This document shows, one piece after another, positions 640-1,856 of a DNA stretch of 12,469 nucleotides; within the stretch, counting starts at the first letter, position 1, and each line of letters starts with the position of its first letter. Position numbers and translations under genes: made by a program. The notes below the pieces were generated by a model that worked only from the letters and a program-made list of their open reading frames with translations, had not been told where the DNA came from and did no database searches. The DNA is from a virus: UHGV virus genome UHGV-0112027; one strand, written 5' to 3'.

Positions 640-1446
640 TCACTTCGCCTCCTGCTGCGGTGCTGCTGCGATCATGGCCTTCCATTGGTGGTCTGGGCTC
701 CATAATCTACCGCCATCTTCACACTCTTCCTGCGCCTGATGGTACGCCTCACGCATTTCTGGAGTTGGCTCCTTAGGAACCAGCACCCAACCATCCGGAA
801 TCACCGGAGAGTTGCTGACGGGCGACTCGGAAATTTTTGGCGAAGAATCTAGGGCTGGCGCGGTCTGCATGGTGGTGGGCGACTCGGCTTTTTCGGCACC
901 CTGAAGCATGGCGTCGCGGCATCCGTCATACGCTTCTTTCATAGCATCACGCACCCATCCGACAGGTTTCTGCTCAGTCAACTCACACCATTTCTCGAAT
1001 GTGGGCACAGATACCGGAACTGGCGGTGCTGCATAAAGCGCCTGACAACTCCAGCCAGACCAGTGAGCACCCTCCGCTCTCTCATCATCTTCAGGGCGAA
1101 CAAGCGTGACTTCGCTCGGGTGTTTCCTGTGTGACCACAGCCAGGCTACGGTTTCGGCATTGGCTGGCTCTGGCGGGGCGGAGTAAAAATACTCATCCTC
1201 AATCCCATCAACGGGCTTTGAGAAGCCGATAAAATCACCATAATGCCAAGGATAGGGGCCGTATGGCTCAGAGGTCACACGACGCCACCGGTGAATGGCA
1301 GGCTCCGCTTCGAGCGATGCCAGCGCGATACGCAGTGCCGCCAGCGTGTTGCTGTCGCCTTCGTCCAGACCGAACGGGATTTCATCTCTGGCTGCTTCCA
1401 TGTCGGCAATTTTCTGCTGCAGCCATTGTTTGGTAATAGTGCTCAT
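640..1446 (-). CDS. Hypothetical prophage protein, 268 aa, with internal repeated P-x-E...EAY motifs; function unknown
   Basis: Long ORF; start ATG overlaps upstream stop (ATGA) with GGAG RBS; repeated segments KPVGWVRDAMKEAYDGCRDAM and PTPEMREAYHQAQEECEDGG. Confidence 0.6.
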   Translation of the reverse strand: MSTITKQWLQQKIADMEAARDEIPFGLDEGDSNTLAALRIALASLEAEPAIHRWRRVTSEPYGPYPWHYGDFIGFSKPVDGIEDEYFYSAPPEPANAETVAWLWSHRKHPSEVTLVRPEDDERAEGAHWSGWSCQALYAAPPVPVSVPTFEKWCELTEQKPVGWVRDAMKEAYDGCRDAMLQGAEKAESPTTMQTAPALDSSPKISESPVSNSPVIPDGWVLVPKEPTPEMREAYHQAQEECEDGGRLWSPDHQWKAMIAAAPQQEAK

Positions 1447-1856
1447 GATGCCTCTCCTTTACCGGATGCGGCGGCGATCAGCTTCTGCGCCTGCTGAATG
1501 TCAGGATTGCCTGCAATCATCACTTCTGGCGCGTCACAGTCACCGCCAAGGTCAAGAATGCGCTCATGTCCGGTACGCAGGCAGGATTTGTATCCTGAAA
1601 CCGTCTGCTTGAGCGATTCGGTCAGCACAGCAATCCTCTGGTCTTTGGCTTCCAGCTCATCCAGCAGCGCCAGCACTGTGGCTGGGTTGGCTGCGGAGTT
1701 CAGCGCGTTCAAGGCAGTGATATCTGCATCAAGCTGAGTTCATTCTGCCAGTGAGATATCGAAAATGTCATCAGGCGGCATAACACTAAGGCGCTCATGT
1801 GCACCAACTGCTGCCTCAGCGATTTCACGTAATGCGCGTTTGTCGATGTTGCTCAT
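1443..1856 (-). pseudogene. Ead/Ea22-like gene interrupted by a single in-frame TGA (codon 39, nt 1740-1742)
   Basis: ATG at 1856 gives MSNIDKRALREIAEAAVGAHERLSVMPPDDIFDISLAE, then TGA, then the same frame continues as TQLDADITALNALNSAANPATVLALLDELEAKDQRIAVL... to the stop at 1443. The track ORF 1443..1712 begins at a TTG in that same frame. The ANPA-VLALLDE coiled-coil motif matches my recollection of Ead/Ea22-like proteins. Confidence 0.5.

Follow-up and report, generated by a model that had tools for sequence, protein, structure and literature searches.

The window (the whole 12,469-nt stretch of DNA that was analysed, UHGV virus genome UHGV-0112027) carries int on the minus strand (11459-12451), then, on the plus strand, genes for a Dam methylase, exo/bet/gam, a DUF6414 gene and an S24 repressor, and, again on the minus strand, YdaS/cro-like, YdaT, O, P, ren, 66-aa, 76-aa, ea22-like, 268-aa and 73-aa genes. 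The ea22-like gene is interrupted by an in-frame stop codon. The features of this locus, with the evidence for each in brackets, are:

1443..1856, minus strand: ead/Ea22-like gene (PF13935) with one internal stop, ancestral product 137 aa (translation, Pfam, comparison with E. coli LR-62-2)
1740..1742, minus strand: premature TGA at codon 39, derived from GGA (Gly) by G→T at window base 1742 (alignment, per-base comparison)
1743..1856, minus strand: 38-codon N-terminal fragment (translation)
1443..1739, minus strand: 98-codon untranslated remnant with its frame still open, corresponding to a long helix and the conserved C-terminal module (ORF list, translation, model)
1853..2083, minus strand: upstream 76-aa gene, the first 19 nt of which are the same as those of the ea22-like gene (MSNIDK) (ORF list, repeat search)
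640..1446, minus strand: downstream 268-aa gene, PHROG 60 (function 'unknown'), intact in the window (ORF list, PHROG)
1742..1771, minus strand: σ70-like promoter motif, present in the T allele only (consensus match)

Translated on the minus strand from 1856 to 1443, the gene comprises 38 codons (MSNIDK…SLAE; MSNIDKRALREIAEAAVGAHERLSVMPPDDIFDISLAE), a TGA at 1742→1740 (TCA on the plus strand at 1740-1742), 98 further codons in the same frame (TQLDAD…GKGEAS) and a terminal TGA. An earlier note on this DNA, made from the letters and a list of open reading frames, had described two segments in one frame with TGA at 1740-1742 between them, and its coordinates and codon counts are exact. An SD-like GGAGGA lies upstream, and the ATG overlaps the stop of the preceding gene (ATGA). 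The mechanical ORF list divides the locus into 1740..1856 (38 aa, from ATG) and 1443..1712 (89 aa, from TTG, as had also been remarked); this TTG, at 1712-1710, is the first in-frame start-like codon of the remnant and has no Shine-Dalgarno. The same note held that no ATG lies downstream of the stop. There is one in frame, at codon 113 (1520-1518), 74 codons past the internal stop, but with 25 residues left it is useless for restart, and in that sense the remark stands. The 38-codon N-terminal fragment is the sole part of the protein expected in quantity.

When a residue was placed at the internal stop, the reconstructed 137-aa product matched PF13935 (Ead_Ea22) at 85.7 bits (E 5.5e-24, against a gathering cut-off of 27 bits) over residues 2-100, a span that includes the stop, and both fragments have precomputed PF13935 hits. 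Because the joined product matches this family across the stop, and because it is, except at residue 39, the 137-aa protein of 408 contigs, the two ORFs of the split do not adjoin by chance. NCBIfam gave no match for the ea22-like product or its neighbours, and all PHROG matches of the product are of 'unknown function'. Alignment showed the ead/Ea22 family to be strongly mosaic: a conserved start (MSNIDKxALRE) is followed by a variable insert, a conserved NPATVLALLDELEAKD motif and alternative C-terminal modules, of which the one here (…GYKSCLRTGHERILDLGGDCD.PEVMIAGNPDIQ…) is common to many Enterobacter and Escherichia homologues. Within residues 88-116 (in 1443-1739, minus strand) the Cys/His/Asp positions of GYKSCLRTGH…GGDCD are well conserved among homologues from these two genera, and could form a small metal-binding or active site.

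The AlphaFold model of the intact allele is of good confidence (pLDDT 86.6) and all-helical, with helices at residues 6-24, 28-33, 41-55, 58-102, 110-115 and 118-132. Codon 39 falls in its sole low-confidence loop, ahead of 4/6 helices, and in a variable part of the family alignment. A Foldseek search of the model against the PDB returned nothing at E ≤ 0.001, and no known fold for the C-terminal module.

Relatives show the ancestral state of codon 39. When 5,426 complete E. coli genomes were searched with Megablast, the 414-nt gene was present over its full length in 25 records, at ≥97.9% identity; in many others only its first ~210-234 nt were shared. The gene of E. coli LR-62-2, likewise 414 nt, shows a single difference from the window, G instead of T at gene nt 115; its codon 39 is GGA (Gly), and its product is an intact 137 aa (WP_000065101.1). 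This allele, found in LR-62-2 and C8 and also in E. fergusonii ATCC 35469 (UniRef B7LND6_ESCF3), is thus identical to that of the window save for the one base that makes codon 39 GGA rather than TGA, and it occupies the same slot of the nin region, with ren and two small ORFs on one side and the 268-aa gene on the other. GGA is present at codon 39 in C8, 23AR0885, WEM25 and phage mEp213 as well. Direct reading of the codon in 37 sequences, the window included, gave 24 TGA, 13 GGA and nothing else, all of the intact copies read (13/13) having GGA. An 81-nt probe centred on the site matched 11 complete E. coli records exactly (TGA), 47 with one mismatch and one with two; each of the 48 mismatched records that was fetched had GGA. 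More distant homologues all have Gly at the site. The earlier note had offered a recent nonsense pseudogene among its readings and had proposed looking in orthologues for a sense codon such as TGG. The first of these is borne out by the 13/13 intact GGA copies and the one-base difference from LR-62-2; as to the second, there is indeed a sense codon elsewhere, although it is GGA and not TGG. One intact allele, that of E. coli 23AR0885 (locus L002, 1501-1920), carries an in-frame 6-nt tandem duplication (CTTGAC) that adds Leu-Asp to the C-terminal module; in the same strain the upstream 76-aa gene is frameshifted.

The TGA allele is widespread and already known, RefSeq/PGAP labelling it 'ead/Ea22-like family protein, pseudo, internal stop' (for example in S51, 2018-06-4CC and EH08-18-36), so that public annotation flags it as a pseudogene. 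In a collection of 15 billion proteins, from which all contig counts are drawn, 408 contigs carry the exact intact protein, and 601 and 164 carry close variants; 398, Shigella sonnei records among them, carry the exact 38-aa fragment, and the remnant has been called as an 89-aa or 77-aa ORF on about 200 more. The index listed the intact protein in 710 blocks and the 38-aa fragment in 668. The allele occurs in gut metagenomes too. It lies on at least three haplotype backgrounds (nt 57 A/G; nt 330/331 AG/CA; two ren haplotypes), in prophages with three Q antiterminator families and several repressor types. Its presence on several backgrounds therefore marks it as a standing polymorphism moved about by recombination. 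The best coverage of the window by a complete E. coli genome was 81%, at 98.5% identity.

In every related locus, with either allele, the gene order is P, ren, 66 aa, 76 aa, Ead_Ea22 and 268 aa, with ybcN, NinE, YbcO, RusA, YlcG and Q further on beyond the 268-aa gene. The earlier note had pointed to a nin-region placement, and this was found after P and ren and before ybcN/ninE, for both alleles and at all related loci; the nin region is the normal place of the ea22-like gene in this prophage group. The exo-to-int stretch of the window, where Dam, TraR-type and DUF4222 ORFs lie, gave no Ead_Ea22 hit. One related prophage (L009) combines the TGA copy in its nin region with another Ead_Ea22 gene, intact (135 aa; 1797-2204), on the exo-xis side beside a TraR-type zinc-finger gene; Ead_Ea22 paralogues can thus coexist in one prophage.

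The name 'ea22-like', which the earlier note also used, holds at the level of the Pfam family (PF13935) and fails at that of pairwise similarity to the lambda protein: BLASTP of the product against lambda Ea22 (NP_040612.1, 182 aa) found no alignment at E ≤ 100. The lambda protein bears the same RefSeq family name, 'ead/Ea22-like family protein', and its architecture (PMC10834534), in which a short N-terminal part leads into a long helix or coiled coil followed by a variable C-terminal domain, is similar to that of the model here, yet it is only a distant family relative. Lambda ea22 lies between exo and xis in the pL operon, whereas the window gene lies in the pR operon, in the nin region. 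Orthology to lambda ea22 was rejected on these two grounds, the lack of pairwise similarity and a location other than between exo and xis. Ea22 of lambda and of Stx phages has a pro-lysogenic role by experiment (PMC7093339), and the lambda protein requires its C-terminal domain as well as its N-terminal and coiled-coil parts for activity (PMC10834534). Since BLASTP finds no similarity and the genome position differs, the pro-lysogenic role is not safely transferable to the gene studied here. Closer at their 5' ends are the EaD/ead-type genes of the phages mEp213, mEp043, Louie and Dewey and of prophages of the WEM25 type, whose first ~206-234 nt are 92-93% identical to the window gene and include a GGA codon 39. 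The shared stretch corresponds to residues 1 to about 70 (MSNIDK…LALLDELE), beyond which these proteins have other C-terminal modules, and the genes belong not to the nin region but to the early-left (exo-xis side) operon, beside Abc2, HNH-endonuclease or DUF551 genes.

The immediate neighbours are themselves variable. A 19-nt exact direct repeat (ATGAGCAACATCGACAAAC), at 1838-1856 and 2065-2083, forms the starts of the ea22-like and 76-aa genes and looks like a recombination joint of a mosaic; the 76-aa protein matches only the C-terminal part of PHROG 4132 (positions 106-178 of 179). Downstream, the ATG of the 268-aa gene overlaps the ea22-like stop (ATGA), and the gene has its own Shine-Dalgarno, AAGGAG. 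In related prophages at least four truncations have arisen in it independently, with TGA and GGA alleles alike: the substitutions G562T (187 aa) and C709T (236 aa), a frameshift at about nt 282 (118 aa) and, from nt 348 on, a replacement (160 aa), noted at loci L001, L007-L009, L017, L025-L028 and L030. Truncated copies accompanied 7/24 TGA and 4/13 GGA sequences, and as these samples are non-independent no association with the TGA allele was concluded. The truncations suggest that selection on the accessory module is relaxed in lysogens.

Variation among collinear prophages extends to the slot beside the S24 repressor. The window has the DUF6414 gene there (6116-7030, plus strand), and elsewhere (loci L019, L020 and L025, ~200-1900) the slot holds HipA_2 with DUF3037, a Ser/Thr protein kinase, or Peptidase_M78 with DUF4411; the slot resembles a variable hotspot for morons or defence genes. 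At the far end of the window a weakly matching AlpA/excisionase-like ORF (11287-11478, plus strand; Pfam E 0.003, below the gathering score) converges on the tyrosine integrase gene (11459-12451, minus strand) with an overlap of ~20 nt. The integrase gene, listed from TTG, is on the strand opposite to the pL-side genes, unlike in lambda.

Very probably, the window carries a loss-of-function allele (GGA→TGA) of the ordinary kind, in a dispensable ead/Ea22-like prophage accessory gene; the allele would have been spread by recombination and is now common. One G→T transversion would have turned codon 39 of 137 from GGA (Gly) into TGA, and ribosomes starting at the ATG (1856) would then terminate after 38 residues. 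The stop is at residue 39 of a domain that spans residues 2-100, four of the six predicted helices come after it, and the 38-residue fragment would be expected to keep only the first two short helices. We infer that the function of the protein is almost certainly lost, as the fragment is without the long central helix and the C-terminal module. The 268-aa gene would lose translational coupling and, judging from its sequence, keep its own strong Shine-Dalgarno. Because the gene would be dispensable for the prophage, the allele could have persisted, moved by recombination onto several lambdoid backgrounds of E. coli and Shigella, and grown common, a spread that we take to be neutral.

Three observations weigh against this picture. 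The TGA allele matches the commonest intact allele in frequency, which could mean selection rather than drift. The frame past the stop is open in 24/24 TGA sequences, although decay would be invisible at ~1% diversity: the 297-nt remnant has 3 segregating sites in 21 collinear TGA loci, a density like that of the flanking genes, and no extra stops or frameshifts, and as diversity is only about 1% across the genes of the neighbourhood, the open downstream frame is uninformative on either decay or selection. Lastly, some leakage through UGA there must be (2-4% in a K-12 reporter; PMC10570021), and a trace of full-length Trp39 protein is expected, as for any UGA nonsense allele.

That the allele spread instead as an adaptive gain, the G→T change creating a putative σ70 promoter for the 268-aa and 73-aa genes, is unlikely. 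Read from 1771 to 1742 on the minus strand, the T allele has ATGACA, 18 nt ending in TGg, and CAGAAT; the final T, invariant in -10 hexamers, is the mutated base. This motif scores 9/12 consensus matches, with an extended -10 TG at -15/-14 and a spacing within the 16-18 nt range of such promoters; the GGA allele gave no such hit. Such motifs arise seldom, in 6/1242 of the possible single substitutions in the ancestral gene and in only 1/40 of the possible nonsense substitutions, G→T at codon 39 alone. The allele is, moreover, unusually common and present on many backgrounds, and a terminator-like hairpin at 373-348 (minus strand), after the 268-aa and 73-aa genes, would close the putative unit. 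Transcription would then run to that hairpin even in a repressed prophage, and loss of the ea22-like product would be a side effect. However, the observation is post hoc and concerns a match at just nine of twelve consensus positions, the region has no excess of such motifs (1, compared with a shuffled mean of 1.8), and the downstream 268-aa gene is truncated in 7/24 TGA sequences.

Functional opal read-through, in which tRNA-Trp would decode the UGA so that the gene is tuned down to a useful low level of Trp39 protein, is very unlikely. UGA is the leakiest stop in E. coli (read-through in the K-12 reporter strain BW25113 was about 2% at 37 °C and 4% at 25 °C; PMC10570021), the frame is intact past the stop in all 24 TGA sequences, and residue 39, in its variable low-confidence loop, might tolerate Trp. 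Yet the stop is polymorphic (11 TGA versus 48 non-TGA complete E. coli records) and the base at +4 is A (UGA-A), not the leak-prone C (PMC5289835). Folding of the RNA that surrounds and follows the stop is no more favourable than that of shuffled sequence (z = -1.3), Rfam gave no match at E ≤ 1 across the whole window, and tRNA genes were absent from the window and from 20 kb of a related prophage. The earlier note's candidate for opal read-through gained no positive support: the stop is polymorphic and replaced elsewhere by Gly, +4 is A, and neither a structure, an Rfam match nor a suppressor tRNA was found. Programmed UGA recoding, as in Qβ A1 and selenoprotein genes, likewise involves an in-frame UGA followed by an open frame, but here orthologues do not share the stop and have Gly at that codon rather than Trp or Cys, and neither a stimulatory context nor a structure is present. 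Two specific forms of recoding were rejected: a phage-borne suppressor tRNA, there being no tRNA gene in the window or in the 20-kb related prophage segment, and selenocysteine insertion, there being no SECIS-like hairpin and no Rfam match, and the orthologues having Gly, not Cys.

Even less probable is a split gene, in which translation would restart at the TTG 27 nt past the UGA (1712-1710) to give a partly active 89-aa C-terminal protein. The TTG is close to the stop, gene callers often annotate an 89-aa or 77-aa ORF, and restarts after nonsense codons are known in E. coli from the lacI restart work, which counts in favour of such a product. TTG is nonetheless a weak start, neither it nor a later GTG is preceded by a Shine-Dalgarno-like sequence, and the C-terminal domain of lambda Ea22, albeit a distant relative, does not have the activity of the protein when alone (PMC10834534). 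A sequencing or assembly error in the window, which the earlier note had allowed for and which has nothing but general possibility in its favour, can be dismissed, since the same TGA recurs in 11 complete E. coli records that come from unrelated laboratories, and in 23 more genome and metagenome loci assembled independently.

For annotation, an ordinary nonsense allele means that the 38-aa and 77-89-aa 'hypothetical proteins' should be merged into one flagged pseudogene, as PGAP does. Beyond annotation its significance is small: it provides one data point that a nin-region ead/Ea22-like gene is dispensable for prophage persistence and that a null allele can become frequent. Only the putative creation of a promoter would add to the biology. 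Were that promoter real, a single substitution would both knock out one phage gene and activate those next to it in the lysogen. The 268-aa and 73-aa genes would then become a constitutive, terminator-bounded, 'moron'-like unit, and this could explain why the TGA allele has reached the frequency of the intact one among prophages of E. coli and Shigella.
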